A stretch of DNA of 64,000 nucleotides, taken from Candidatus Eiseniibacteriota bacterium. Its GTDB lineage: Bacteria; Eisenbacteria; RBG-16-71-46; CAIMUX01; VGJL01. Positions within the stretch are counted from its first letter, which is position 1; every line of letters begins with the position of its first letter. The stretch covers positions 103,084-167,083 of the forward strand of contig JBHGAY010000006.1 in assembly GCA_041946735.1 (NCBI GenBank), read 5' to 3'. The translations under genes were made by a program, and so were the position numbers. The notes beneath the pieces are model-generated. The model saw nothing but the letters and a program-made list of their open reading frames with translations. It had not been told where the DNA came from and did not search any database. This document shows, one piece after another, positions 497-14,647 of the stretch.

Positions 497-3400
497 ATGA
501 AGAACGCGAAGCGGACGAACGAAACGACGGGAGCCGCGCAGCGCGCGAAGCCGGCCGGGCGGTGGCACGCCGCCCGCGCGCTTCTTCCGCCTCTTCTCCT
601 CGCGCTGGTGGCGGGCCTTCTCGCCGCGCCCGCGGGCGCGACCGCTCCCGATCCGGCGCCCGACTGGAGCGCGAGCGGAGAAATCACGCACGCGTGGTTC
701 GGGAGCGCGGTCTCGACGACCGGCGACGTCAACGGGGACGGACTCAGCGATCTGATCGTCGGAGCGGGGAACTACGGTTCCCAGCGGGGGCGGATCCGGA
801 TCTACTACGGCGCGGCCGCAGGCATGGACTCGCTCGCCGACTGGACGCGCAACGGCGCCCAGGGGAATCAAGGGCTCGGCGTCTCGGTCTCGACGGCCGG
901 GGACGTCAACGGGGACGGCTATGACGACTTCCTCGCTGGATCCCCGTACTTCACCGGAACGAACGCAGAGGAAGGAAAGCTGCACCTCTACTTCGGCTCG
1001 CCGGGCGGGCCGGTCGAAGCGGCGGAGTACACGCAAGGCCAGCTCTACGCTCACCTGGGAATGTCGGTCGCGGGCGGGGGCGACTTCGACGGGGACGGCT
1101 ACGACGACTTCGCCGTCGGGGCCCCGCTGCTCGAGAACAGCCAGCTCGACGAAGGCGGCGTGCTCGTCTTCTACGGCCGTGCGAACCAGGCTCCAGCGAC
1201 CTACGAGCAGTGGCTGCAACCGAACATCGCGTCCGCTTCCTTCGGGGCATCCGTGTCGGTGGCCGGCGACGTGAACGGAGACGGCTACGACGACCTGATC
1301 GTCGGCGCCCCGAAGTACGCCGGCGCGGGAACGGAACGCGGGGCGGCGTTCGTCTATCTCGGAGGCCCCAACGGGCTCGGGCCGAATCCGCTTTGGACGA
1401 AGGTCGCGGCGCAGGACGGGAGCCACCTCGGCGCCTCCGTCGCGGGAGCGGGCGACGTCAACGGCGACGGCTATGCCGATGTCCTGGTCGGCGGGCCGGA
1501 CGCGGGCAATCTCCAGCAGGGACAGGCATGGCTCTATCGGGGCGGCGCGGCCGGACCCGAGGTGGATCCCTTCTGGATTGGGACGGTGAGCCAGGCGTCC
1601 GCGCACTTCGGCGCCGCGGTGGCGACGGCCGGCGACTTCGACGGGGACGGCTACGCGGACGTCGTCGTCGGCGCGCCGGGCTACAACGGCGCGGGCGGAG
1701 CGGACGAAGGGCTCGCCCGGCTCTATCGCGGCTCGATCGGCGGGCTCGTCCTCGTACGCGAGCACACCTGCGGGCAGCCGGTCGCCGGCTTCGGCGTGGC
1801 GGTCGCGACCGGGGGCGACGTGGACGGCGACGGCTTCAGCGACCTGTTGATCGGCGCGGGGCGCTGGGACGGATCGCAGCAGGACGAGGGGCGCGTCTTC
1901 CTCTATCGCGGCCACGCGCGCACGCTCGCCGGCAATCCCGAATGGTCGTGGAACGGACAGCCGGCTTCGTATGTCTACGACCGCCAGCCCCCTTCGTCCT
2001 GCTCGGGAGACTGGAACGGCGACGGGCGGAGCGACATCGCGATCGGCGATCCGCACGCTCCCGAGCAGGTCGGCCGCGTCGACGTCTTCTACGGCAGCAG
2101 CGCCGGACCGTCCGGCGCGCCGGGCTGGAGCTTCGTCGGCGACTCCTACCACGTCCATCTCGGCCGCAGCGTCGCGGCCGGCGACCTGGACGGCGACGGC
2201 TACGACGAGCTGCTCGTCTCCGCCCCCGGCTCGCTCTACGAGAACGCGGGGCCGGGCCGCGTCTTCGTCTTTCGCGGAGGTCCGAGCGGACTGTCCGGCT
2301 CGCCGGACCTGGTCCTCGAAGGAGAGCAGGACGGCTCGCTCTTCGGGCACGGCCTCGCCTGGGCGGGGGACGTCGACGGCGACGGCTACGGAGACGTAGT
2401 CGTCGGGGCCCCGCGGCACGGATCGGTCGACGCGCCGAGCGGCCGGCTGCTCCTCTACCGCGGGGACCCGGATGCGCTGCTCCATCCTGCTCCGCTGGTC
2501 GCCGACGGAGCGCCCGGCGAAAGGCTGGGCCACACGATCTCGGCCCCGTGCGACTTCGACGGCGACGGCTATGGCGACTGGGCGGTCGGCTCGCCGGATG
2601 CGCGCGACTTTGGCAACCGCGCCGGGAACGTGCACGTCTACTTCGGCGGTGAGAGTCCCAACCTGGTTCCGGATGTCGTCCTGCGCGGCGGCACCAATCC
2701 GACGGCGTTCGGATGGTCCGTCCTCGCGTGCGATCTGACCGGCGACGGGCGCTCGGACCTGCTGATCGGCGAGCCGTACTACGACGACGGATCGAACCAG
2801 AATCGCGGCCAGGTCATCCTCTATCTGGGGACGGCCACCGGCCTCTCGCTGTTCCCTCTCTGGGGACGGGTCGGCGAGATCGACAACGGCAACCTCGGCT
2901 ACGCGCTGGCGAGCGCCGGGGACGTCAACGGAGACGGGAGGGAGGATCTGCTCATCGGCGAGCCCGGTTACGGCAGCGATCCGTCGCAGGAGCAGGAGGG
3001 ACGGATCCACCTCTTCGTCGCTCCGCTGACGCTGCAGGGCGGGCCGGCATGGACGAAGGAGGGCGGCAAGGCGGACGCGCGCCTCGGCTCGGTGGTCGCG
3101 CGCGCCGGCGACGTGACGGGCGACGGGTTCGCGGACTTCCTGGGCGGCGGCCGGATGTCCGGACCGGGCGACGACGCATCGTTCTTCGTGCAGTTCGGCG
3201 GCGGACGGCGCGGCGTCGAGCGCCCGCTCGCGCAGAAGCGCGGCGACGGAAGCGGGATCCGGCTTCTCGGCGGCACGCGGGACGACGCCTTCCGCATCCT
3301 CTGGACGGGTCGAAGCGCGGCGGGTCGCGACCGGATCCGTCTCGAGCGGGAGATCGCGTCGTCGGGGCAGCCGTTCTCCGGGGGCGGGGAGATCGTCGCC

Positions 3401-3928
3401 GGTCCGCTCGAGGACACCGGCGCGCCGGTGCAGGGCTACGGCAGCCGCATCGTCTACGACGAGACGATCGCGGGGCAGCCGGCCGGCGGGCTTCATTGGC
3501 GGGTGCGCGTGCGGAGCCGCTCCCCCTTCTTCCCCGGTTCGCCCTGGTTCACGCTGGCCGGCAACGCGGCCGCCGAGGACGACATCCGCGTGACATTGCC
3601 TGCGGGGGCCGGCCTCGACGGCGCGAGCGGGAACGAGCGGCTCCCGGGCGCGCTGCGGATCGCGGGCGCGAACCCGTTCCGCGATGCCGCGAGCATCGCC
3701 TACACCCTCTCCACTCCCGCGCGGGTCGACCTCGCGGTCTTCGATGCAGGAGGAAGGAAGGTGGCGCAGCTCGTGGACGGGGAGCGGCCGGCCGGCCGGC
3801 ACCTCGTCGACTGGGCTGCGGGCGATGGCAGCGGCGGGCGGACGGTCCCCTCCGGGATCTACTTCGTCCGGCTCTCGGTCGGGTCCTCGGAGCCGCCGGA
3901 AGTCCTGCGAATCACGCGCGCTCGCTGA
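497..3928 (+). CDS. Secreted FG-GAP/integrin-alpha repeat protein with C-terminal FlgD-Ig/secretion-tail-like domain
   Basis: GGAGG RBS upstream and a hydrophobic signal peptide. More than 12 repeats of FG.sVa.aGDvnGDG.dD.lVGAP. C-terminus NPFRDAASIAYTL..VDLAVFDAGGRKV..PSGIYFVRL. Confidence 0.9.
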   Translation: MKNAKRTNETTGAAQRAKPAGRWHAARALLPPLLLALVAGLLAAPAGATAPDPAPDWSASGEITHAWFGSAVSTTGDVNGDGLSDLIVGAGNYGSQRGRIRIYYGAAAGMDSLADWTRNGAQGNQGLGVSVSTAGDVNGDGYDDFLAGSPYFTGTNAEEGKLHLYFGSPGGPVEAAEYTQGQLYAHLGMSVAGGGDFDGDGYDDFAVGAPLLENSQLDEGGVLVFYGRANQAPATYEQWLQPNIASASFGASVSVAGDVNGDGYDDLIVGAPKYAGAGTERGAAFVYLGGPNGLGPNPLWTKVAAQDGSHLGASVAGAGDVNGDGYADVLVGGPDAGNLQQGQAWLYRGGAAGPEVDPFWIGTVSQASAHFGAAVATAGDFDGDGYADVVVGAPGYNGAGGADEGLARLYRGSIGGLVLVREHTCGQPVAGFGVAVATGGDVDGDGFSDLLIGAGRWDGSQQDEGRVFLYRGHARTLAGNPEWSWNGQPASYVYDRQPPSSCSGDWNGDGRSDIAIGDPHAPEQVGRVDVFYGSSAGPSGAPGWSFVGDSYHVHLGRSVAAGDLDGDGYDELLVSAPGSLYENAGPGRVFVFRGGPSGLSGSPDLVLEGEQDGSLFGHGLAWAGDVDGDGYGDVVVGAPRHGSVDAPSGRLLLYRGDPDALLHPAPLVADGAPGERLGHTISAPCDFDGDGYGDWAVGSPDARDFGNRAGNVHVYFGGESPNLVPDVVLRGGTNPTAFGWSVLACDLTGDGRSDLLIGEPYYDDGSNQNRGQVILYLGTATGLSLFPLWGRVGEIDNGNLGYALASAGDVNGDGREDLLIGEPGYGSDPSQEQEGRIHLFVAPLTLQGGPAWTKEGGKADARLGSVVARAGDVTGDGFADFLGGGRMSGPGDDASFFVQFGGGRRGVERPLAQKRGDGSGIRLLGGTRDDAFRILWTGRSAAGRDRIRLEREIASSGQPFSGGGEIVAGPLEDTGAPVQGYGSRIVYDETIAGQPAGGLHWRVRVRSRSPFFPGSPWFTLAGNAAAEDDIRVTLPAGAGLDGASGNERLPGALRIAGANPFRDAASIAYTLSTPARVDLAVFDAGGRKVAQLVDGERPAGRHLVDWAAGDGSGGRTVPSGIYFVRLSVGSSEPPEVLRITRAR

Positions 3929-4123
3929 CGCGGCGGAGGGGCGTTGACTCAGCCGATCTCTACCCAGCGCGCTCCCGTTGCTTCACGCAAAGTGCTACCC
4001 GGCCGGGCAGGCTGGGGGGCAAGCATGAGGGAGCGGATCGACATGGGCAACGCGCAGGGAAGTGATCCGAGTTCTGGAGCAGCGATACCGATATGCGAAC
4101 CGGCCGGAGAAGAGCCGGATCCT

Positions 4124-4202
4124 GACGACGAGGAATTCGACCGCAATGATTCCTCGAACGCGGTTCATGAGAAACGCGCGCCACCTTGCGGACGGCGGCC
4201 GC
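4124..4202 (-). mobile_element. 79-bp remnant of DDE integrase/transposase gene (copy of 10250-10328)
   Basis: Manual alignment to 10250-10328 gives 69/79 identical bases in the same orientation. Translates RPPSARWRAFLMNRVRGIIAVEFLVV versus RPPSATWRAFLKNHVREIIAADFFVV. Confidence 0.8.
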
Positions 4203-4280
4203 AAGCGGCGAGCGATCGGGACCGTAAGAGGAAGATAGAAACGGAGAGTCTTCCGCAGAAGGCGGACGCTTCGAAACCCC

Positions 4281-5012
4281 TCACTGCCGGTACGGCAGCT
4301 CGTGCTCCCAGCACCGATGCAAGTCGGCTGCGTCTCGAATGTCGCGCACGAGCCTGCCCCGCTCGAGAACCAGAAACCGGGAGCAGGTCTGGGAGGCGAA
4401 GTCGAGATCGTGGGTGGCCACGAGCATCGCTGCTGGCAGATCGCGCAACAATCGCGCGAGGCGTCGCCGGCCGGGTGGATCCAGCCCGGCAGAGGGCTCA
4501 TCAAGAAGCAAGACCGCGGGATCAGTGACCATAGCGCCCGCAAGTGCCACGCGCTGCTTCTGGCCGTGGGAAAGATGGTGAACAGCGGATTCCGCCAGCT
4601 CGCTGATCCCGAGGGACTCGAGGATCCGCATTGCGCGCTCCGATGCCTCGCGCGACGGCAGCCCGCGACGCACCAGCCCGAACGCCACGTCCTCGATCAC
4701 CTTGGGAAAGAGCAGCTGATTCTCCGGCACATTGAAGAGAAAGCCGACTCGATTGCGGATCTCGGGCGCCGACCGCCTGGAGAGCGGAGTCCCGGTGACG
4801 AGGATCCTGCCTTCGTGCGGGACCAGTCCGACCACCGCCATGAGCGCCGTCGTCTTGCCCGATCCGTTGAGTCCGATCAACCCTACTCGTTCGCCGACCG
4901 CGACCGAGAAGGAAACGCCGGCCAACACCGACGGCGCCGCCGGCTCATATCGGACAGTGACTTCGCGGAACTCGAGGCCCGGCTCGGTTCGGCCCTGAGA
5001 CGGATCGGTCAC
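4281..5012 (-). CDS. ECF transporter ATPase (CbiO/EcfA-like)
   Basis: GTG start overlaps the TGA of the upstream gene. Walker A GLNGSGKT, signature LSHGQKQR, Walker B LLLDEP, ATHD switch. Confidence 0.9.
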   Translation of the reverse strand: MTDPSQGRTEPGLEFREVTVRYEPAAPSVLAGVSFSVAVGERVGLIGLNGSGKTTALMAVVGLVPHEGRILVTGTPLSRRSAPEIRNRVGFLFNVPENQLLFPKVIEDVAFGLVRRGLPSREASERAMRILESLGISELAESAVHHLSHGQKQRVALAGAMVTDPAVLLLDEPSAGLDPPGRRRLARLLRDLPAAMLVATHDLDFASQTCSRFLVLERGRLVRDIRDAADLHRCWEHELPYRQ

Positions 5013-5770
5013 TGCCGTATTTCCCAGCGCAGCGCTACGGCCCCTGCGAGCAGTCCGGACGCGAGTAGAAGAACAGCCACATCGCGGGCCTGCAGCCGAC
5101 GTCCATGAAAGCAAGGGATCGTGTCCTGCCCGTATCCTCGGATCTCCATCGCGGAGGCGACCTCCTCCGCCCGGACCACGACCCGAGGGATCCAGACCTG
5201 GGGAAGCGAAACGAGAATTCGCCACGCCGTCCTGCCGGAACCCGACGCCCCGCGGACCGCCATCGCAGACGCCACCTGTCGCGTCTCGTCCAGCAGCGTG
5301 CCGGCCTGATGGATGATCTGCAGCAGAATCGCGGAGACGTGGCGAGGAATCGGAAGTTGCACCAGTCCCTCGCGGAGATCGCTTGCAGTCAGGGACGTGA
5401 CGACACCCAGCATCACGAGCATGCCGCTCAACCCCCGCACGAACATGCTCCATGGGACCGCGACAGAACGCCCCCAACTCCACGCCGCACCGGCCGGCGC
5501 ATTCCGGATCAGAGGCGTCAGAATGAACGCCGGCAGCAAGAAGGAAAGCCCCAGAAGCACCACTCTTCCGATGGTTCCGAGCGGCGGACTGCAGAGAAGG
5601 AGCCAGGCCGCGGTCCCTCCCGCGACGCAGGCAAGGCCCGCCAGGCCCGTCACAGGCGCGGCCATGCAAACGGCGAAGAGCATCAGCCCGGCCAGAACGC
5701 GGGTCTGCGGCGTGAGCCGGGTGGCCGGTCCGCGCGCGCATCCCCAGAGGCCGTGCCACGAGGTGCGCAC
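5009..5770 (-). CDS. ECF transporter transmembrane T component (CbiQ/EcfT-like)
   Basis: Multi-TM N-terminal half. C-terminal AMAVRG and AMEIRG Ala/Arg-Gly coupling motifs. Adjacent to the ATPase. Confidence 0.85.
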   Translation of the reverse strand: MRTSWHGLWGCARGPATRLTPQTRVLAGLMLFAVCMAAPVTGLAGLACVAGGTAAWLLLCSPPLGTIGRVVLLGLSFLLPAFILTPLIRNAPAGAAWSWGRSVAVPWSMFVRGLSGMLVMLGVVTSLTASDLREGLVQLPIPRHVSAILLQIIHQAGTLLDETRQVASAMAVRGASGSGRTAWRILVSLPQVWIPRVVVRAEEVASAMEIRGYGQDTIPCFHGRRLQARDVAVLLLASGLLAGAVALRWEIRQ

Positions 5771-5776
5771 CGCGAC

Positions 5777-6388
5777 CTACCCGACCGGCTTGGCAGCCGA
5801 GAGAATGTAGCTGTCCGGCGTTTCAACTGCGGTTGTCACCTCGAATCCTTGCGCCGTGAAAAGGTCCGCGAGATCCTGCACCGGCGGTAAGTGATCCCGG
5901 CAGATGGCCTCACCTGCGTCCGCGTGCACCTGGTTCACGCGCTCACGCGAAATCAGGTGCCACACGTGAACCCGCCCGCCCGGTCGCAGGACGCGGCGGA
6001 GTTCGCGAGCGACATCCTTCGGATCCTCGAAGTGCGGCCAGACCGAGTAGCAGATCGCACGGTCGCACGAGCCGTCACCGAGAGGGAGGTGCTCCGCTTC
6101 GGCCAGATGCCACCGAACACGAGCGTCGGAGACTTTCCCGCGCGCCGTTTCGATCATGCGCGGCGAGATGTCGACGGCCTCGACTCGCCCGTCGGCCGAC
6201 AGATGATTGAGCAATGCCGTAGTAAGGTTGCCGGTCCCGCACCCGATATCGAGCACGGTTTCCCCGGTGCCGACGCCGAAAGCACGCAGCCCGTCGTCGA
6301 ACTTTCGCGCCAGGGATTTCAGGCATTCCCATCCGTCCCATTGCTCGGCAATACCGTCGAAGAACGCGACCTTGGAATGGTTACTCAT
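5777..6388 (-). CDS. Class I SAM-dependent methyltransferase
   Basis: VLDIGCGTG motif I, AVDISPRM, AEHLPL, RVLRPGG. Confidence 0.9.
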   Translation of the reverse strand: MSNHSKVAFFDGIAEQWDGWECLKSLARKFDDGLRAFGVGTGETVLDIGCGTGNLTTALLNHLSADGRVEAVDISPRMIETARGKVSDARVRWHLAEAEHLPLGDGSCDRAICYSVWPHFEDPKDVARELRRVLRPGGRVHVWHLISRERVNQVHADAGEAICRDHLPPVQDLADLFTAQGFEVTTAVETPDSYILSAAKPVG

Positions 6389-6926
6389 AGAGGGTTGTCT
6401 CCGATCCCGAGGCGAGTCGGACAGACCTTCGGCAAACGGTGACCAAAGGCGGGACGACCATGATCATGAGCACGATGCCGGGCCATCCGCTGAGGAGCGA
6501 GAGGCCTGCCATGAATCCCGCGGGGAGATGAATGACCAGTGAGAATGCGTAGACGAGTCCGACGTAGAGGAAGCGCCCGAAAAGCAGGACCGGAACCAGG
6601 ATCAGCCAGGCGTTCGCCCGCAGCCAATGGCGGGCGGCGATGGCGATCAACCCCGCCATCAGTGCCAGCTCGATGGCCATGAAGACCGCGACCGGCGGAT
6701 AGAACGGCGGCATACCCATCAGGGCGCCCGAAAGAAGCGGGGTCAGGAGAGCGGTGACCGCCGCGGGCCACGGACGGACAAAGAAAGGAAGCGTCACCAG
6801 GGGCAGGTACATCGGCATGAAGACGTGCCCCAGATGAACCAGGTGAAAGATCGTGGGCAAGAGCAACGCGATTGCTCCGAACATCCCGCAATAGGCCAGT
6901 TCCCTTGCAGACAGCCGCGTCCCCAT
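6381..6926 (-). CDS. ECF transporter substrate-binding S component (specificity unknown)
   Basis: 181 aa with ~5-6 TM helices and N-terminal RELAYCGMFGAIALLLP..FH, typical of ECF S components. Lies in an operon with T and A components. Confidence 0.75.
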   Translation of the reverse strand: MGTRLSARELAYCGMFGAIALLLPTIFHLVHLGHVFMPMYLPLVTLPFFVRPWPAAVTALLTPLLSGALMGMPPFYPPVAVFMAIELALMAGLIAIAARHWLRANAWLILVPVLLFGRFLYVGLVYAFSLVIHLPAGFMAGLSLLSGWPGIVLMIMVVPPLVTVCRRSVRLASGSETTLYE

Positions 6927-6947
6927 CGGATCCCGGTCCTTCCGTGA

Positions 6948-9002
6948 CTAGAAGTCGGCCTTGAGCCCGCTCATCCATACCTGCCGGGGCATCGGGTATC
7001 CTGGCCGGTACTCGTATCGTTCGCCGGTGATGTTCTCACAGGCGAGGAACAGCTCGGCTTGCGATGCGTTGATCGGCAGGCGATAGCCGAGGCGTCCATT
7101 GAGCACGAAGTGTCGTTTCACCCGAGCCGTGGGGGACTCGTAGTCGGCCGGCGCGGCGAACCGGGGATTGAGGATGAACTGCGCGTCGCACCAGGCGGCA
7201 TCGAGGCTCAGCCCGAGTGCGCGGGTCAGCCTTGAGTTGAACCCTGCAGTGACGGCCCAGTCCGGCGCGTTCGGCAGGTCCTTCGGGGTCGGATGCATGA
7301 GCGTCACTCCAGCGAAGAGCGTGGAGGAACCGGCCTCGGTGGAAAGGCTCGTCTCCACGCCACGGTTGATGTATCGCCCGTCGTTATCGAAGCGCGGAGG
7401 CTGAAAGGGAGGCGGAGGCGGAATCACAGGCGGAACCCAGTGGAGCGCCGAGCGCACCTCGTCGTAGAACGCGTTCACCTCCAAATCGCACTTCGCATAC
7501 GGACGGAACCTCAAGCCCACCTCGTTGTGGTCGAGAAGCTCCGGGCTCAGGCTCTTCCACTCGTCGGGGCGGCCCCAGCTGTCGTACATCGCCGCGACGT
7601 AGACGCCCGGCAGGTTGAAGGCGCGGCTGTGCTGGATGTTCAGGCGGGTACGTCCCCGTTCGGCGGTTACACCTCCCTGCCACCCCCAATCCGAGCCGAA
7701 GAAGCGGCTGTCGTTGTAGCGTGCGCCGATCGACGGTGTCAGATGCCAACCGCCCACGGGATCACTAGCAAGAGGAAACGTCCGGGCCAGGGCCAGATAG
7801 GGCGCTCGATTGCGGAATTGGTGCGCCGACTCGGGTTGGTCGCCTGTCGCGAGCTTGTTCCGGGTCTTGCCTCCGTAGAAGTCCTGGTCGTATCCCAGAG
7901 TCAATGCAACTGCCGCGGGCAGCGGCACCGATTCCTGGAGGTGCAAGCCGTAGTTCTGGTAATCGGTCATCGTGGTGAAACTCTGTGCGGGCGCTCCGCC
8001 GCCCGGCGAGTCCCACTGGAGCCAATCCAAGTGTCCGTCCTCGAGGTAGACCTTGACCGTGCCCGTGGCGGGCCCGATCCGATGCGCCATCGTGGCCAGA
8101 TACAGCTCGGTGTCAGTCCGGAAGGTAGGAACGCGAAATGCAGGGTCTGCGAGTGGCCACGGATCCTTGGTCGAGCCGGGATCCTCGTCCTTTCCGTCCG
8201 TGTGCTCGACTTGGAAGTTCCAGTCCCAGCCCTGCGCGATCTGGTAGCCCGCTCGGCCATAGAGTGATTCGGTTCTGCCGGCAGCGAGGTCGCGCTGGCC
8301 ATCGCTGCGGTTTCGGCCTGCGCTCAGGTAGTAGTCGAAACGGCCGGTTTGGCCACCGTGGCGGATGACCCCGGACGACGTGTTATATCGCCCGAAAGCG
8401 CCCTCGACCGAGGTTTCGTACCCCGGCGCCGTTCGGCGGAGTGGCACCAGGTTGACGGTGCCGAAGGCCATGTTGCCTTGCAGCACCGGCTGCGCGCTCT
8501 TGCGAACCTCGATGCCGCCAGACGATTCCAGGGAGAGTGCGTCCATGATCGGATGGGTCCATACGCCCACGAATCGAGGGATGCCATCGAAGAGGGTGCT
8601 GACTTCGGCGCCGGGGCGGCCGGAGCCGAGCCCCCGAATGTAGACCGCCCCTCCATCCCCACCGCCGTATCCGCCGACGAGGTCGTAGCGCGAGATCGCC
8701 ACGCCCGGAAGCCTGCGCAGCGCGGAAGGGAGATCCAGCGCGTTCATGTCGCTGATCTGCCTGGGGCCCATGATCGTCACCAGGCCGCCCAGTCGATCCA
8801 GGCGCGTGTCCTCCAGGATCGGCCGGTCTGCCGTGACCACGATCTCGGGGAGAACGATGGCCTTCTTCGGGTCCGGCCCCTTCTCCTTCGATGTTGCCGT
8901 CGAGACCGAGCCAGCGGTCGCAGGCGCTGTGACCAAGAGCATTCCAGGCAGCAAGAGCCCCAGGCCCGCGAGCGCCCTCCTCAACCGGTGAGCCAATGTC
9001 AT
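6948..9002 (-). CDS. TonB-dependent outer-membrane receptor
   Basis: Signal peptide, TonB box EIVVTA, plug motifs LRRLPGV / YIRG / DGIP / IEVRK..GTVNLV, and C-terminal ENITGERY..MPRQVWMSGLKADF. Confidence 0.92.
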   Translation of the reverse strand: MTLAHRLRRALAGLGLLLPGMLLVTAPATAGSVSTATSKEKGPDPKKAIVLPEIVVTADRPILEDTRLDRLGGLVTIMGPRQISDMNALDLPSALRRLPGVAISRYDLVGGYGGGDGGAVYIRGLGSGRPGAEVSTLFDGIPRFVGVWTHPIMDALSLESSGGIEVRKSAQPVLQGNMAFGTVNLVPLRRTAPGYETSVEGAFGRYNTSSGVIRHGGQTGRFDYYLSAGRNRSDGQRDLAAGRTESLYGRAGYQIAQGWDWNFQVEHTDGKDEDPGSTKDPWPLADPAFRVPTFRTDTELYLATMAHRIGPATGTVKVYLEDGHLDWLQWDSPGGGAPAQSFTTMTDYQNYGLHLQESVPLPAAVALTLGYDQDFYGGKTRNKLATGDQPESAHQFRNRAPYLALARTFPLASDPVGGWHLTPSIGARYNDSRFFGSDWGWQGGVTAERGRTRLNIQHSRAFNLPGVYVAAMYDSWGRPDEWKSLSPELLDHNEVGLRFRPYAKCDLEVNAFYDEVRSALHWVPPVIPPPPPFQPPRFDNDGRYINRGVETSLSTEAGSSTLFAGVTLMHPTPKDLPNAPDWAVTAGFNSRLTRALGLSLDAAWCDAQFILNPRFAAPADYESPTARVKRHFVLNGRLGYRLPINASQAELFLACENITGERYEYRPGYPMPRQVWMSGLKADF

Positions 9003-9076
9003 GCACCGCCCCTCCCTTCCCCTCCGAGTCCACTCACGAGGGCCTGCACCGCTCCGCGCGGCGAGTGCAGTCTTCT

Positions 9077-9490
9077 CTAGGTCAGTCCCTTGCCGGTCGT
9101 TGCCGGACTGAGGTTGCCACTCTTCACGCCCTTGAGCGTCGTCAGGCGGTCAGCCAGGTCCCTGACTTTCGAGGCCTTTCCCTTGACGATGACGATCTCC
9201 AGGCAGTTGTGATGATCCATGTGAACGTGCGTCGTGCTGACGATCGAAGCCTGGCAGTCATGCTGGATCTGGGTGATGCGGTTGAGGAGATTCGGCTGGT
9301 GGTGATCGTAGACCATGGTGATCACCCCCATGACGTCTGCCTTGCCACCTTGCCACTCGTCCGCGACCAGCGCGCGACGGATCAGGTCACGCACACCCTC
9401 CGACCGGTTCTCATAACCGTGGACCTCTAGGAACCGGTCGAACCGATCCAACAGACCCGCGTCCAGAGTTGCCGAGAATCGCTCCACCAT
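9077..9490 (-). CDS. nikR: Nickel-responsive transcriptional regulator NikR
   Basis: RHH N-terminus RFSATLD..NRSEGVRDLIR. Ni-site motifs YDHH, QH and THVHMDHHNCLE. Confidence 0.95.
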   Translation of the reverse strand: MVERFSATLDAGLLDRFDRFLEVHGYENRSEGVRDLIRRALVADEWQGGKADVMGVITMVYDHHQPNLLNRITQIQHDCQASIVSTTHVHMDHHNCLEIVIVKGKASKVRDLADRLTTLKGVKSGNLSPATTGKGLT

Positions 9491-9491
9491 G

Positions 9492-9518
9492 GTAATACGA
9501 ATCCTCCACCAGTAATAC
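9492..9518. promoter_or_regulatory. Putative NikR operator GTAATAC-N13-GTAATAC spanning the nikR RBS and -10 element
   Basis: Two quasi-palindromic heptamers (9492-9498 and 9512-9518) 13 bp apart, an AT-rich patch in a GC-rich background, directly upstream of the nikR ATG. Confidence 0.7.
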
Positions 9519-9542
9519 TACCGATGCTGATGCGGCTGTCAA
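9515..9542 (-). promoter_or_regulatory. sigma70-type promoter of the nikR operon
   Basis: Minus strand reads TTGACA (9542-9537), 16-bp spacer, TAGTAT (9520-9515). Confidence 0.7.
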
Positions 9543-9545
9543 GAC

Positions 9546-10600
9546 TGTCCCTCCCGAAAACCCCATCTGCGCCTCCGATTCCGATCCGCGTCGTGATCTC
9601 GCTTCGTCCGCGGTCGACTCTATTCCCGGAAACGCGCTGTGAAGCGGGTCAATCTGTCGACGAAGGGGCCAGGCGGCAGTCTGGGCTTCGCCCGTTCGTG
9701 ACCAACCTGGACAGCCTGCGGGAGCGGGGGCGAGCCGTGAGCCTCAGGCGGCGACGCGTTCGTAGCGATGATGGAGTGCTCCGACCTCGGAGATCTCCAC
9801 GATACGGCCCACTCCCGGCCCCCGGACCTCCCGATGCTCGGGAGAGTCCATCTCCAGCGCCTGATGCGTCCGCCAACGATGGTCGTAGCCGAAGTACTCG
9901 GTCAGGATCCGTTTGAGGTGCCGCTCGTTCACAACGATGCAGTGGTCGAGGCGCTCGCGTCGAATCGACCCGATCAGCCTCTCGACGAAGGGGTTCTGCG
10001 AGGGTCTTCGCGCAGCGATCAGTATCTCCTCGAATCCCAACCCGCGCACCCGCTTCCGGAACGTCTCGCGTAGATCTTGTCGCGATCGCCGAGTAGGAAC
10101 CTGGGCGGGTCCTGCCAGGGAAACGCTTCGACGAGCTGTTGCGCCGCCCATCGGGCAGTCGGGTTCGACGTCACGTTGAAGTGGAGCACTCGGCGTCGAT
10201 TGTGGGCGAGCACGAGAAAGACGAAGAGTATCTGGTTACGGACGGTCGGGACGACGAAGAAGTCGGCCGCGATGATCTCTCGCACGTGGTTCTTGAGAAA
10301 CGCGCGCCACGTTGCGGACGGCGGCCGCCTCCTCCGGATCCTGTAGCGCTCGACCGTCGACTTCGCGACCTCGATCCCGACCATCCGCAGCTCACCAACG
10401 ATTCGAGCCGACCCGCACATTGGGTTCGCAGCGGACATCTTGCGGATCAGATCTCGCACCTCTCGCGGAACCGCCGGTCGCCCGGAACGCCCCGACCGAC
10501 ACAGCTTGCGCCAGTGATCCCGGAACTTTCGTCGACGCCAGGCGAGGACCGTTTCCGGCTGAACGAAGAGAAGGGCGTCGCGCCACGCAGGCCAGAGGCT
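9546..10600 (-). mobile_element. Degenerate IS element (rve/DDE integrase, IS3/IS481-like), left part missing
   Basis: Contains the integrase pseudogene 9744-10600. Possible terminus TGTCCCTCCCGAAAACCCCATC begins at 9546 (TGT end). Confidence 0.65.
9744..10600 (-). pseudogene. Integrase core-domain transposase, frameshifted near 10070 and 5'-truncated
   Basis: One frame gives VQPETVLAW..RIVGEL..AADFFVV..GDRDKIY. A second frame continues ETFRK..QNPFVERLIGSIRRERLDH..HHRYERVAA. No N-terminus or start upstream of ~10600. Confidence 0.85.
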
Positions 10601-11182: not shown

Positions 11183-14100
11183 TCACCCCCCGGTAGCGCC
11201 GCCTGCGCTGCCTTCCGCGAGGCGGAGGGCTTCCTCGAGCGGCATCGCCCGTCCGGCCGCCCAGAGAGAGACGAAGCGATCGGCGCCGAGAGCGTCGCGC
11301 AGCTCGCGGACCCGGTCGTCCCAGATCGCGCGCTCCCCTTCGCCGATCGGCAATCCCATCGCCTCGTGCTGAGCCTCCGCGGCGCCGAGGAGACGCGCCG
11401 CCCGGGCGTGCTCTCCGGAGCGGTGGTCGACGGCGCCCAGCGTCGTCAGGACGGCGAGGAGCGTGACCTGCTCCGCCGCTTCTCGCGCGAGGTGCAGCGC
11501 TTCCACCGCATGCAGGCGCGCTTCGTCCACCGCGCCGCCCGCGAGGGCGATCTCGGCCAGCGCCGAGAGCGAGGCGGCGAGCTGGCGCCTCTGTCCCGTT
11601 CGGCGAAGGACGGCCACACCTTCCTGCGCGAGACGCCGCGCGCGCGAAGCCTCTCCGAGCTGCAGGAGGCTGTAGCTCAGATTGCGACTCGTGACCGCCT
11701 GGTTCGCGTCGTCTCCGATCTCCCGCAGGATCGCGATCGCCCGCTCGTAGTGCGGGACCGCCTCCGTGTGATTGCCGAACCTCGCCTCCAGCACTCCGAG
11801 GTTGCAGGCGAGGGTCGCCATCGCGTGGAGCTGCCCGGCCGCCTCGTGCAGGGCGAACGACTCGGTGAGGAGGGCTCGCGAACCTTCCACGTCCCCTCGA
11901 AGATCGGCGAGGTAGCCGAGCAGGTTCAGCGCCTGCGCGATCGAGTCGCCCTCGCCGGTCGGGCGCAGCAGCGCCAGCGCTTCGCCGCCCAACTTCCACG
12001 CGCCGTCCAGGTCCCCGGTCGGCCAGAGGAGAGAGGAGGCTCCGACCATCGCGCGTCCGCGCAGCTCGGGCGGCGAGCCGGCGGCGGAGGCGAGCATCTC
12101 GGAGAAGTGGCGGTGCCCTTCGCGGAACGACTCGCTGCGAAACCAATAGCGGCGGAGCGAAAGGCAGAGCCGGATGCCGGCTTCGAGACGCGGCGCCTGG
12201 CCGGAGCCGCCTCCGGCTCGCGAAGCCCAGGCGATCGCGGCGCGGAAGTCGTCGGTCTCCGCTTCGATCGCGGCCATCGCTTGCGGCTCGACCGGACCGA
12301 CCATGCGGGCGTCCGCCTCGCGGGCGAATCGCAGGAACCAGGCGAGGTGGCGATCGCGGCCGCGCGCCTCCTCGCCCGCTTCGCGAAGGCGGTCGAGAGC
12401 GAAGGCGCGCACCATCTCCGGCATTCGATAGCGAGGCGGGGAAGCCTCGGAGTCGAACTGCGCGATCGAGCGGCGCACGAGACTCTCGAGAAGGCCGAGA
12501 ACCGGCTCGCCGCCAATGGTCCCGCCTTCGCTGCTCTTCTCTTCCTCGCCGGCGCCGCCTTCGTCGGCGCAAACCGCGCGCGCGGCGTCGAGCGTCCAGC
12601 CTCCCGCGAAGACGGCGGAGCGGGCGAGGCAGAGCTGCTCGGGCGGCGAGAGCAGCCGGTAGCTCCAGTCGATCGAGGCGAGCAGCGTCTGCTGCCGCGG
12701 CAGGACGGCGGCGTCGCGCACGGAGAGCAGCCGGAAGCTTTCGTCCAGGTGGTCGGCGATCTGCTCGGGGGTGAGCGCGCTCGTGCGGGCGGCGGCGAGC
12801 TCGATCGCGAGCGGGATCCCGTCGAGCCGGCGGACGATCCGCGCGATCGCCGGAGCGATCTCCGGCGTGACGGCGAAGCCGGGCCGCTGGCGGCACGTCC
12901 GGTCGACGAAGAGGCGCACCGCTTCCGCATCGAGGATCTCGAGCCCCTCGCGCTCTCCCGACCGCGCGGGCGGAAGCGGCGGAACCGAGAGGGATCGCAC
13001 GCGCATCGTCCTCTCGCCGGGATGTCCGAGCGGCTCGCGGCTCGTGGCGAGGATGCGCAGGCGTGTTTCCGTCCCGGCAGGGAGGAGGCCCGCGAGCAGC
13101 TCACGCACGCCGCCGAGCACGTGCTCGCAGTTGTCGAGCACGAGCAGCAGGGTCTTGCCGCGCGCGAACTCGAGCACCTGCTGGAGCGCGTCGCGCTGCT
13201 TCGATTCCGGAGCGCCGACGGCGGAGGCCGCCGTTTCGGCGACGAGATACGGGTCCTGCAACGGGGCGAGATCGACCCACCACACGCCGTCCGGGAGCCA
13301 GCCGGCCGCCTCCTCGGCGGCGCGATGCGCGAGCCGCGTCTTGCCGCAGCCGGCCGAGCCGGTCAACGTCACGAGCCCCGGCTCGAGCAGCAGGCGGCGC
13401 ATCTCCAGGATCTCCTCGCGACGTCCGATCAGGCGCGTCGGGAACGAGGGAAGATTGCCCGGCGCGTTCGCCGCAGGCCGGCCGGCGCCGTCGCTCTCGG
13501 TGGCCGGCGCCCCGCGCTCGTCGTCCGCCACGCCCCCCGCGTCCCCGGCGGCGACGCGGAAGTGCGCGGCCAGCTCGCGCGCCGAGCGCGGGCGATCGGC
13601 GGGATCGCGTGCAAGGCAGCGATCGATCGCGCGCGCGAGAGACGGCGGGAGGTCCGGGCGAAGCTCCCGCACCGGCAGGATCTCGCCGCGTCGGTGCTTG
13701 TCGATCAGCTCCGCCCAGCTCGACGCGGCGACCGGATGCCGCCCGGTCGCGAGCCGGTAATGGAGGCAGCCGAGCGCGTAGAGGTCGCTCGCGTGCGAGG
13801 CCGGTGCGGTCCCTTGGAGCAGCTCGGGGGCCATGACGATCGGGGTTCCTTGCGGACTGCCGTCCGGGAAGACGCGCTCGCGGCCGGTCGCCGTTCCGGC
13901 CCCGAAGTCCATGAGGATCGTGCGGCCGTCGGGATCGCGCATCGCGTTCGACGTCTTGACGTCGCCGTGGATCAGCCCGGCGTCGTGCACGGCGGCGAGG
14001 GCGGCGCAGAGATCGATGCCGATGCGGGCGACCTCCGCGGCGGGCAGCGGGCCTTCGCGCGCCAGGCGCTCCTCGAGCGTCTCGCCGCGGATGAAGTCGG

Positions 14101-14647
14101 TCCACATGCCGGCGCGACGGTCGTGCACCTCGACCCCGTGCACGGTCAGGACGTTCGGATGGCGCACGCGGGCGAGCCGTCTCGCCTCCTCGAGGTGCTC
14201 CTCGAACGCCGCCTCTTCCGCTTCGCCCGCGAAGCGTCGCAGCTTCAGAGCCACCTCCCGGTGGAGGACCGTGTCGAAGGCGCGGAAGACCTCGCCGAAG
14301 CTGCCGGACCCGAGGCGCGAGAGGACGCGAAGCGGTCCCCAGTCGAACGGAAGGCCTGCCGCCGCGGAGCCTGCCTGCGCGGGCTGCGGTCCGTCCGGCG
14401 GCGGGACCGCCTCCGCGGGCGGGATCTCGAGCGGCTGCGCGCAGGCATCGGCGACCGAACGGATCAGGCGCATCCATTGGAGCCGGCCGGCGAGGCGCGG
14501 CTCCTGCGCGGCGAGGGCATCCCAGTCCGGCTCGCGACCGTCGGCGAGACTGCGGGCGGCGGCGAGGAGGATCGGATCCGGCGAGCGACTCTCGTGCCCC
14601 GCCGCCCCCTTTCGCTTTCCCTCTCGCTTACGCGGGCCGGTAGGCAT
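11183..14647 (-). CDS. Ser/Thr protein kinase fused to STAND (NB-ARC/AfsR-like) ATPase and TPR repeats
   Basis: Kinase motifs LGSGSFGEV, VALK, HGDVKTSN, DFG, GTPIVMAPE, SDLYALG. ATPase motifs GSAGCGKT, LLVLDNCEH, ATSREPL, LDGIPLAIELAA. TPR-like C-terminus and no evident TM segment. Confidence 0.92.
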   Translation of the reverse strand: MPTGPRKREGKRKGAAGHESRSPDPILLAAARSLADGREPDWDALAAQEPRLAGRLQWMRLIRSVADACAQPLEIPPAEAVPPPDGPQPAQAGSAAAGLPFDWGPLRVLSRLGSGSFGEVFRAFDTVLHREVALKLRRFAGEAEEAAFEEHLEEARRLARVRHPNVLTVHGVEVHDRRAGMWTDFIRGETLEERLAREGPLPAAEVARIGIDLCAALAAVHDAGLIHGDVKTSNAMRDPDGRTILMDFGAGTATGRERVFPDGSPQGTPIVMAPELLQGTAPASHASDLYALGCLHYRLATGRHPVAASSWAELIDKHRRGEILPVRELRPDLPPSLARAIDRCLARDPADRPRSARELAAHFRVAAGDAGGVADDERGAPATESDGAGRPAANAPGNLPSFPTRLIGRREEILEMRRLLLEPGLVTLTGSAGCGKTRLAHRAAEEAAGWLPDGVWWVDLAPLQDPYLVAETAASAVGAPESKQRDALQQVLEFARGKTLLLVLDNCEHVLGGVRELLAGLLPAGTETRLRILATSREPLGHPGERTMRVRSLSVPPLPPARSGEREGLEILDAEAVRLFVDRTCRQRPGFAVTPEIAPAIARIVRRLDGIPLAIELAAARTSALTPEQIADHLDESFRLLSVRDAAVLPRQQTLLASIDWSYRLLSPPEQLCLARSAVFAGGWTLDAARAVCADEGGAGEEEKSSEGGTIGGEPVLGLLESLVRRSIAQFDSEASPPRYRMPEMVRAFALDRLREAGEEARGRDRHLAWFLRFAREADARMVGPVEPQAMAAIEAETDDFRAAIAWASRAGGGSGQAPRLEAGIRLCLSLRRYWFRSESFREGHRHFSEMLASAAGSPPELRGRAMVGASSLLWPTGDLDGAWKLGGEALALLRPTGEGDSIAQALNLLGYLADLRGDVEGSRALLTESFALHEAAGQLHAMATLACNLGVLEARFGNHTEAVPHYERAIAILREIGDDANQAVTSRNLSYSLLQLGEASRARRLAQEGVAVLRRTGQRRQLAASLSALAEIALAGGAVDEARLHAVEALHLAREAAEQVTLLAVLTTLGAVDHRSGEHARAARLLGAAEAQHEAMGLPIGEGERAIWDDRVRELRDALGADRFVSLWAAGRAMPLEEALRLAEGSAGGATGG

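Follow-up and report, generated by a model that had tools for sequence, protein, structure and literature searches.

A nikR-headed ECF transporter operon with a methyltransferase beside its S component in a Candidatus Eiseniibacteriota genome and other uncultured bacteria

A locus in a Candidatus Eiseniibacteriota genome raises the question of what is imported, and what happens to it on arrival, when a methyltransferase gene sits among the transporter genes of an operon headed by the nickel regulator gene nikR. The locus lies in a stretch of 64,000 nucleotides (nt) on contig JBHGAY010000006.1 of assembly GCA_041946735.1 (positions 103,084 to 167,083 of the forward strand), referred to here as the window. 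According to the open reading frame (ORF) listing and translation, it holds six co-oriented minus-strand genes in the order nikR, TonB-dependent receptor, S component of an energy-coupling factor (ECF) transporter, methyltransferase, T component and A component. We conclude that this module is a real six-gene operon which recurs in hundreds of uncultured bacteria, and that its S component is a divergent vitamin-type S component, not a NikM or CbiM protein. The function we hold to be probable, with some reserve, is nickel acquisition in which the methyltransferase is functionally coupled to S. The module is apparently undescribed, as no description was found in the full-text literature, where subscription journals are largely uncovered.

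The operon and its recurrence

The six genes are tightly packed, as the first-pass annotation of this DNA had reported, with an overlap of 8 nt between S and the methyltransferase (6381-6388) and of 4 nt between T and A (5009-5012). The remaining intergenic gaps are 74, 21 and 6 nt. The arrangement is not due to chance, since of 160 related loci almost all share the order S, methyltransferase, T and A. These loci form two sets: 80 genome loci with an S relative, taken from GTDB contigs with one genome per species, and an independent set of 80 metagenome loci seeded with one distant member of the S family.

The S family is large and widely distributed. At E <= 0.001, 818 proteins of similar length are S relatives, the best 120 being 64-88% identical to the S of the window, and identity within the family is 55-88% across many phyla. 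Among the candidate stretches in the one-genome-per-species contigs, 340 of 368 encode an S relative, and an S profile retrieves 1308 representatives (50% identity) at E <= 0.001, 518 at E <= 1e-10 and 41 at E <= 1e-30. The lineages named in the record titles of the 80 first-set loci, all of them metagenome bins, are Myxococcota/Polyangia, Acidobacteriota/Aminicenantes, Planctomycetota, Verrucomicrobiota, Kiritimatiellia, Lentisphaerae, Fibrobacterota-like groups, Bdellovibrionota and Raymondbacteria. Judged by the record titles, the module is hosted by uncultured lineages only, mostly anaerobic ones.

The methyltransferase gene comes immediately after S in 74 of the 78 usable loci of the first set, two further loci being cut off at S. 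It lies 5 kb from S in L021, and T follows S immediately in L009, L026 and L038. In the second set, a script placed it after S in 61 of 67 loci with room; in three of the six loci that the script scored as misses, the gene is in fact there. Of the first-set loci with room for a receptor gene, 49 of 64 have one immediately upstream; in the second set it lies upstream in 30 of 44. The nikR gene is found within 25 of 78 and 23 of 80 loci, respectively.

The tie between S and the methyltransferase is closest where the two form a single reading frame, which is the case in 5 of 76 loci (L004, L017, L049, L073 and L077, three of them checked by translation). The fusion places the methyltransferase at the C-terminus of S. 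Of the 61 S-matching proteins that exceed 317 aa in length, 59 also have methyltransferase domains, their total lengths being about 330-440 aa, and the distant S relatives P0192, P0207, P0211 and P0278 are likewise fused to a methyltransferase. For 130 S sequences (73 unfused, 57 fused), a maximum-likelihood tree implies 16 switches between the fused and the unfused state. Branches with a Shimodaira-Hasegawa-like approximate likelihood ratio test (SH-aLRT) value >= 95 force at least 5 of these; the tree comes from a quick search, and several of its long branches are unreliable. Conservation of the methyltransferase in homologous loci is therefore confirmed, both by its position beside S and by its occasional fusion to it.

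The same association is seen close to the host. S was found in 2 of 40 relatives of the window's genome, both from another family of the same order, and these two and the window's genome are the only ones with methyltransferase matches above 300 bits, in each case beside S. The closest methyltransferase relatives in genomes without S score 148-161 bits (G015 and G019). These paralogues (locus L163 in G015, L162 in G019) sit between selB and genes for large PMT_2/TPR membrane proteins and gave no hint of a substrate. In one of the two loci, a ZnuA-like gene adjoins the paralogue.

Fusions to other domains also occur in the wider S family. The distant relatives P0306, P0330, P0325, P0204, P0205 and P0225 carry TM1506/DUF1893 (P0306 and P0330), FmdE (P0325) or an ABC ATPase, not a methyltransferase, and all have the same signature residues as S. 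Coupling of a carrier to a cytoplasmic receiver that is tethered to it may be a principle shared by the wider family.

Two xRG motifs, AVRG and EIRG, are visible in the translation of the T component. The best NCBIfam matches of the A component are cbiO, ECF_ATPase_1 and ECF_ATPase_2, all under their equivalog cut-offs. For the receptor, NCBIfam TonB receptor models match below threshold over residues 48-572. The barrel model gave no match at E <= 0.01, but does match the other receptor type found in L011 and L048; the length of the protein and the partial matches over residues 48-572 suggest that a barrel is present.

In 34 of the 59 first-set loci with room, two genes for small cysteine-rich lipoproteins precede the receptor gene (for example L011 4050-5059, L048 4096-5105 and L037 3801-4992). 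One of the lipoproteins has the motif NHQGPCPPEGV, the other terminates in DMEQDFSVPGPYGH, and neither matched a Pfam or NCBIfam family. They may be surface partners of the receptor. With two queries from L037, no homologue of either (lipA, lipB) was detected in the window or in its genome, which is 94.8% complete. Beyond these genes the surroundings of the module vary from locus to locus, with regulators, Znu-type transporters and unrelated enzymes, none of which is conserved.

Predicted nickel control and the host genome

The regulator encoded in the window has Pyrococcus NikR (2bj1) as its best solved match (E 1e-40). Its NikR motif QH...HVHMDHHNCLE is intact and aligns with the solved NikR proteins of Pyrococcus, Helicobacter and E. 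coli (2bj1, 2ca9 and 1q5v). The NikR operator that Rodionov and co-workers predicted ahead of nik(MN)QO in delta-proteobacteria is GTGTTAC-[N13/14]-GTAACAC (PMC545781). A candidate operator of this type lies at 9492-9518; it is unique in the 64-kb window, where 0.01 such sites are expected by chance, and its second half-site differs from the delta-proteobacterial consensus by two bases. The promoter-like site TTGACA-16-TAGTAT which it overlaps is the sole sigma-70-like site in 3900-9800 (mean of 0.6 in shuffled sequence).

Similar sites are common around the related operons. In the first set, 37 sites with at most two mismatches to the consensus occur in 898 kb, compared with 6-15 in 20 shuffles, and 12 of them are perfect. 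Most sit right ahead of the first operon gene, and in L045 and L076 the operator directly precedes nikR, as it does in the window. In 20 of the 63 loci that have room, a script found an operator between -300 and +60 nt relative to the gene that opens the lipoprotein/receptor/S block. Several further sites escape this count for no other reason than over-extended ORF starts in high-GC loci. In the second set, 35 sites with at most one mismatch occur in 543 kb, compared with 0-2 in shuffles. A position weight matrix scan serves as a list of operators and not as a test, as the matrix was trained on sites it then recovered. Collectively, the predicted operators in many loci and in the window speak in favour of the NikR control that had been suggested for this operon.

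An Rfam scan of ten loci without an operator found no riboswitch on the operon strand. Two cobalamin riboswitches at L030 (4784-4955 and 5478-5663, minus strand) were rejected as regulators of the operon, since they are on the opposite strand and face away. They probably belong to a neighbouring B12-regulated operon.

Nickel serves hydrogenases, CO dehydrogenase, urease and the nickel-pincer cofactor. The window's genome encodes two NiFe hydrogenase large subunits and LarC, and its gene content thus indicates that it needs nickel; urease alpha was not found in it. Elsewhere the genome has a canonical nickel ECF operon (L081, contig C45, about 3813-6991) with a NikL-like protein, NikM (188.5 bits) and an ATPase, together with an unassigned ORF at the position expected for Q and a second nikR paralogue. 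A second system directed at another nickel species would be consistent with the presence of this canonical importer.

Close to a contig end, the same genome has a nicotianamine-synthase-like gene (L165 6919-7731, contig C9; PF03059, 53.7 bits) that comes after a gene for a class I tRNA synthetase. The nicotianamine-synthase-like gene was ruled out as a partner of the module as it does not co-occur with S among the relatives, and no NikR box was found in the 8.5 kb around it. Staph_opine_DH was not found in the window's genome, and the same search gave no match in any control genome either.

The operon was probably acquired horizontally. Its G+C content is 63-67%, compared with 71-74% in the flanks, a deficit of about 7 points, and it is bracketed by a 79-nt direct repeat within transposase-like remnants (including 3995-4543), with an rve_3 remnant upstream. 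The lower G+C content and the flanking repeats and remnants together suggest that it arrived on a mobile element. S was not found in any of the five genomes of the same family that were searched.

Two long genes flank the operon and are unrelated to it. One (497-3928, plus strand) encodes an FG-GAP repeat protein of 1143 aa, in which a FlgD-Ig-like match close to the C-terminus is weak and under threshold. The product of the other (11183-14647, minus strand) is a serine/threonine kinase of 1154 aa that also has TPR repeats and an NTPase domain (AAA_22; NACHT and NB-ARC below cut-off). The features of the operon are listed in Table 1.

Table 1. Genes and other features of the operon and its borders, with positions in the window.
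Feature	Position	Strand	Details
nikR	9077-9490	-	137 aa; NF003381 176 bits (cut-off 105)
TonB-dependent receptor	6948-9002	-	684 aa; Plug domain 47.6 bits
ECF S component, family without a name	6381-6926	-	181 aa; S fold in AlphaFold2 model
Class I S-adenosylmethionine (SAM) methyltransferase (S partner)	5777-6388	-	203 aa; Methyltransf_11 (PF08241) 89 bits
ECF T component	5009-5770	-	253 aa; CbiQ (PF02361) 49.3 bits, cut-off 25
ECF A component, ABC ATPase	4281-5012	-	243 aa, GTG start; ABC_tran (PF00005) 106 bits
Promoter-like site TTGACA-16 nt-TAGTAT, upstream of nikR	9515..9542	-	sigma-70-like scan
Candidate NikR operator GTATTAC-N13-GTATTAC	9492..9518	-	overlaps -10 hexamer; ends 1 nt before nikR ATG
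Terminator-like hairpin past the A gene	4241..4256	-	weak: 4 such sites in region vs 3.8 expected
79-nt direct repeat, left copy, within transposase-like remnant	4124..4202		87% identity to 10250-10328
79-nt direct repeat, right copy	10250..10328		87% identity to left copy
Integrase-core remnant upstream of operon	9744-10151		rve_3, 30.7 bits

The S component, its methyltransferase and the possible cargo

The S protein of the window matches no Pfam or NCBIfam family at E <= 0.01. Its whole length aligns with PF12822 (ECF_trnsprt) at 14.7 bits (E 0.031), which does not reach the gathering cut-off of 30.7, and at E <= 1 this model detects 56 of the 68 family members (best E 6.5e-6). By these scores, S is a distant relative of PF12822 which the curated threshold leaves outside its membership. 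An AlphaFold2 model built from 27 relatives has a predicted local distance difference test (pLDDT) value of 88.7 and a predicted template modelling (pTM) score of 0.82. When it was compared with the PDB by Foldseek, the 18 best matches were all ECF S components, including RibU, FolT, ThiT, BioY and PanT, with template modelling (TM) scores of 0.43-0.65 and E >= 0.011. The S profile found no match among the sequences of solved structures.

The N-terminus MH(I/V)..G of NikM and CbiM binds metal. The S protein of the window begins with MGTRLSAREL and lacks this motif, whereas the NikM of the same genome begins with (M)HVPDG. Similarly, S has no match to the CbiM model PF01891 at E <= 0.01, for which the genome's own NikM scores 188.5 bits. 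The first-pass annotation was thus right to set S apart from NikM/CbiM and to liken it to vitamin-type S components, and by the family thresholds used here it falls within no characterised family with a known substrate. A database copy of the protein (P0002, 167 aa) begins at Met15. The ATG at 6926 is the likelier start within the start region 6885-6926, since the segment of residues 8-14 (R8, L10, A11, C13 and G14) hardly varies across the family.

A His/Met-rich loop had also been pointed out in S, and the loop FHLVHLGHVFMPM is indeed present at residues 27-39. Its histidines and methionines are not equally conserved. Of this segment only H28, M39 and Y40 are invariant and M37 is nearly so, while H31 varies between H and R and H34 between H, R and A. 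Constant even among distant relatives are H28, G33, P38, M39, P42, P63, S66, M72, P73, P78, P149 and G150, with M83, E86 and R118 nearly constant. In the topology of the AlphaFold2 model, most of the constant residues map to two outer loops and to the outer halves of helices, which is where S components bind their cargo. A likely pocket, in the protein's outer half, would be formed by the conserved H28, M39, Y40, M72, M83, E86 and R118. With its single His, several Met, one Glu and one Arg, such a pocket would be better suited to a small complex of nickel than to the bare ion.

Conservation in the methyltransferase argues for a working enzyme. Its SAM motif GCGTGNLT, of the GxGxG type found in class I enzymes with a Rossmann-type fold, is present, with G49, G51, G53 and D73 invariant in the family and D47 nearly so. 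P118, H119 and H155 are also invariant, and W17, K85, D88, R90, D109, R110, C113, H141, H144, R148, N152 and D165 nearly invariant. Structural matches reach E 8e-12, and the relatives by sequence and fold are phosphoethanolamine N-methyltransferases, RebM/AtmM, Coq5/UbiG and the Aquifex protein 3dh0. H119 aligns opposite a His of the plant phosphoethanolamine N-methyltransferases which is presumably catalytic in that family. No NCBIfam cut-off was reached; the nearest model, the DVU_1556 family (NF045667), scores 81.6 bits against a cut-off of 155, and its best E value among 68 members of the methyltransferase family is 4.4e-25. An AlphaFold2 model of a natural fusion of S and methyltransferase shows two confident domains joined by a disordered linker (residues 168-178), with a pTM of 0.55. 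Given this linker and score, the enzyme looks tethered to S rather than docked on it. A prediction of the complex of S and methyltransferase (score 0.00, mark 0.32) speaks neither for nor against binding.

These features can be assembled into a sequence of events. Judging from the position of the operator over the -10 hexamer, nickel-bound NikR would silence the whole transcript, including nikR itself. Under nickel scarcity, the TonB-dependent receptor would, as its family suggests, admit a nickel species to the periplasm, where the S component would capture the cargo. The dedicated T component and an A dimer would drive import as in other ECF transporters, and the methyltransferase would act at the cytoplasmic face of S on the cargo that S delivers. 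We infer the chemistry of this last step; the adjacency to S, the repeated fusion and the conserved SAM and active-site residues are observed. The view of the cargo that we prefer, if only tentatively, is that nickel might be bound to a small organic ligand whose methylation releases or traps the metal. It is conceivable, even if we would not call it likely, that import is directly coupled to methyl transfer, with S handing the nickel-ligand complex to the tethered methyltransferase, which would methylate one of the ligand's donor atoms and thereby strip off or trap the nickel.

Several observations weigh against nickel acquisition by a transporter with a coupled methyltransferase. The regulator gene nikR is missing from about 70% of the fetched loci, and with the pattern used, no operator is seen in roughly half of those whose upstream sequence is long enough. 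The need for a second system is left unexplained where a canonical NikL-like/NikM/O operon with its own nikR is already in the genome. The nicotianamine-synthase-like gene is present in one of three S-bearing genomes and in one of 38 without S. A Met-rich pocket with a conserved Arg is unusual for bare Ni(II) and diagnostic of no ligand, and the methyltransferase resembles only generic small-molecule enzymes. The model of the fusion, with its low pTM and disordered linker, predicts no fixed interface. Finally, three loci have no methyltransferase, so the transporter may work without it.

The strongest alternative is that free Ni2+ is imported and that the protein with the methyltransferase fold uses its conserved histidines either to accept nickel in the cytoplasm or to gate the transporter as a sensor. 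The pattern of conservation lends it some weight, as H119 and H155 never vary in the family, H141, H144 and C113 hardly do, and H119, H144 and H155 are kept even in the distant fused forms. A hand-off partner would also fit the fusion of distant S relatives to small cytoplasmic domains with Cys/His motifs (TM1506/DUF1893 and FmdE), and the relatives fused to an ATPase give some further support. Nevertheless, the conserved SAM motif and D73 argue for a working enzyme, and the conserved Arg in the pocket would be odd for a bare cation. In addition, TonB-dependent receptors usually carry chelates or larger molecules and not bare ions. We regard free Ni2+ import as unlikely.

Alternatively, the cargo might not be nickel at all but an organic nutrient needed under nickel shortage (nickel sparing), which the methyltransferase would convert or trap on entry in the manner of the vitamin-trapping kinases. 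The vitamin-type fold of S and its Met-rich pocket with an Arg would suit such a nutrient, and NikR has been predicted elsewhere to repress a non-transport gene too, that of an Fe-only hydrogenase (PMC545781). Against this, the operator is of the type predicted there for nikMNQO nickel importers, and nikR itself lies within many of the operons. No biosynthetic or catabolic genes are conserved beside the module, and the ten loci scanned have no riboswitch on the operon strand. A nickel-sparing role seems quite improbable to us.

Transport of another metal or metalloid (cobalt, copper, arsenic or selenium), which the methyltransferase would detoxify or volatilise, is more doubtful still and has only a slight chance of being correct. 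Met/His-rich loops such as that of S recall copper(I) sites, and the methyltransferase gives sub-threshold matches to arsenite methyltransferases (59 bits, cut-off 263). These matches are generic for class I enzymes and lie far under the cut-offs. Arsenite methyltransferases use a set of conserved cysteines for catalysis, whereas the methyltransferase of the window has just four cysteines, no more than two of which (C113 and the SAM-motif residue C50) are conserved in its family. Regulation by a NikR with intact nickel-site residues also argues against another element, and high-affinity import of a toxic one across two membranes would make little sense.

A passenger role for the methyltransferase, with no functional tie to the transporter, might be read from the three loci in which T comes straight after S, but its constant position across phyla, its strict co-occurrence with S among the relatives and above all the recurrent fusions make this very unlikely to the point of being negligible.

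Nickel acquisition with a methyltransferase coupled to S would add a widespread route of nickel uptake. The module physically ties an enzyme to the substrate-binding subunit of an ECF transporter, and no report of such a coupling was found in the literature searched. Should the ligand indeed be methylated, this would be the first methylation-driven group translocation, and a new answer to the problem of freeing a redox-inert metal from a tight chelator. Processing of the cargo by the methyltransferase would provide a testable mechanism for nickel release from chelators, a ready-made fusion of S and enzyme for structural work, and a marker of nickel limitation in anoxic habitats.

Comparison with known systems

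In the available part of a 2009 survey of nickel and cobalt transporters, the systems listed are NikABCDE, Nik/CbiMNQO, NiCoT, UreH, HupE/UreJ and some cobalt-only carriers; the term TonB does not occur in that text, and the only methyltransferases mentioned are B12-dependent enzymes (PMC2667541). The operon described here is most similar to the ECF systems among them. As in NikMNQO, NikKMLQO and CbiMNQO, the group I ECF importers of Ni2+ and Co2+, a dedicated CbiQ-type T component and a single CbiO-type A component are encoded in the S operon, and the candidate operator is of the type predicted for nik(MN)QO in the report cited above (PMC545781). Unlike NikMNQO and CbiMNQO, the S component has a vitamin-type fold with neither a PF01891 match nor MH..G, and N, K and L subunits are lacking. 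Further differences are the methyltransferase beside or fused to S, the outer-membrane receptor in the operon, and the true NikM operon elsewhere in the genome.

Nickel uptake through the outer membrane has a precedent in Helicobacter, where FrpB4 and FecA3 are NikR-regulated TonB-dependent receptors for nickel which feed NixA or NiuBDE and not an ECF transporter. The receptor of the operon resembles them in being a TonB-dependent receptor under predicted NikR control. No methyltransferase is known to take part in these Helicobacter routes.

Vitamin B12 is taken up by BtuB with ECF-CbrT or with the solitary S-like BtuM, which also modifies its cargo chemically. The combination of a TonB receptor with a vitamin-type S component is shared with the operon, and the cargo of the B12 systems likewise contains a metal. 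The operon differs from them in its NikR regulation, in the receptor's score of 37 bits with the TonB-B12 model (cut-off 600), and in having no cobalamin riboswitch on the operon strand in the ten loci scanned.

Nickel is also taken up as a complex with a small organic ligand in the systems of the Cnt metallophores staphylopine and pseudopaline. The Pseudomonas route includes a TonB receptor (PMC5719457). Here, in contrast, no Cnt biosynthesis genes are linked to the operon, and the inner-membrane carriers are of different types.

The proposed role of the methyltransferase has a counterpart in pairs of transport and trapping such as PnuC with NadR. In these pairs, a cytoplasmic enzyme modifies the arriving cargo by phosphorylation, and the carriers are not ECF S components. 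The operon would follow the same logic of trapping, with methylation as the modification and an ECF S component as the carrier.

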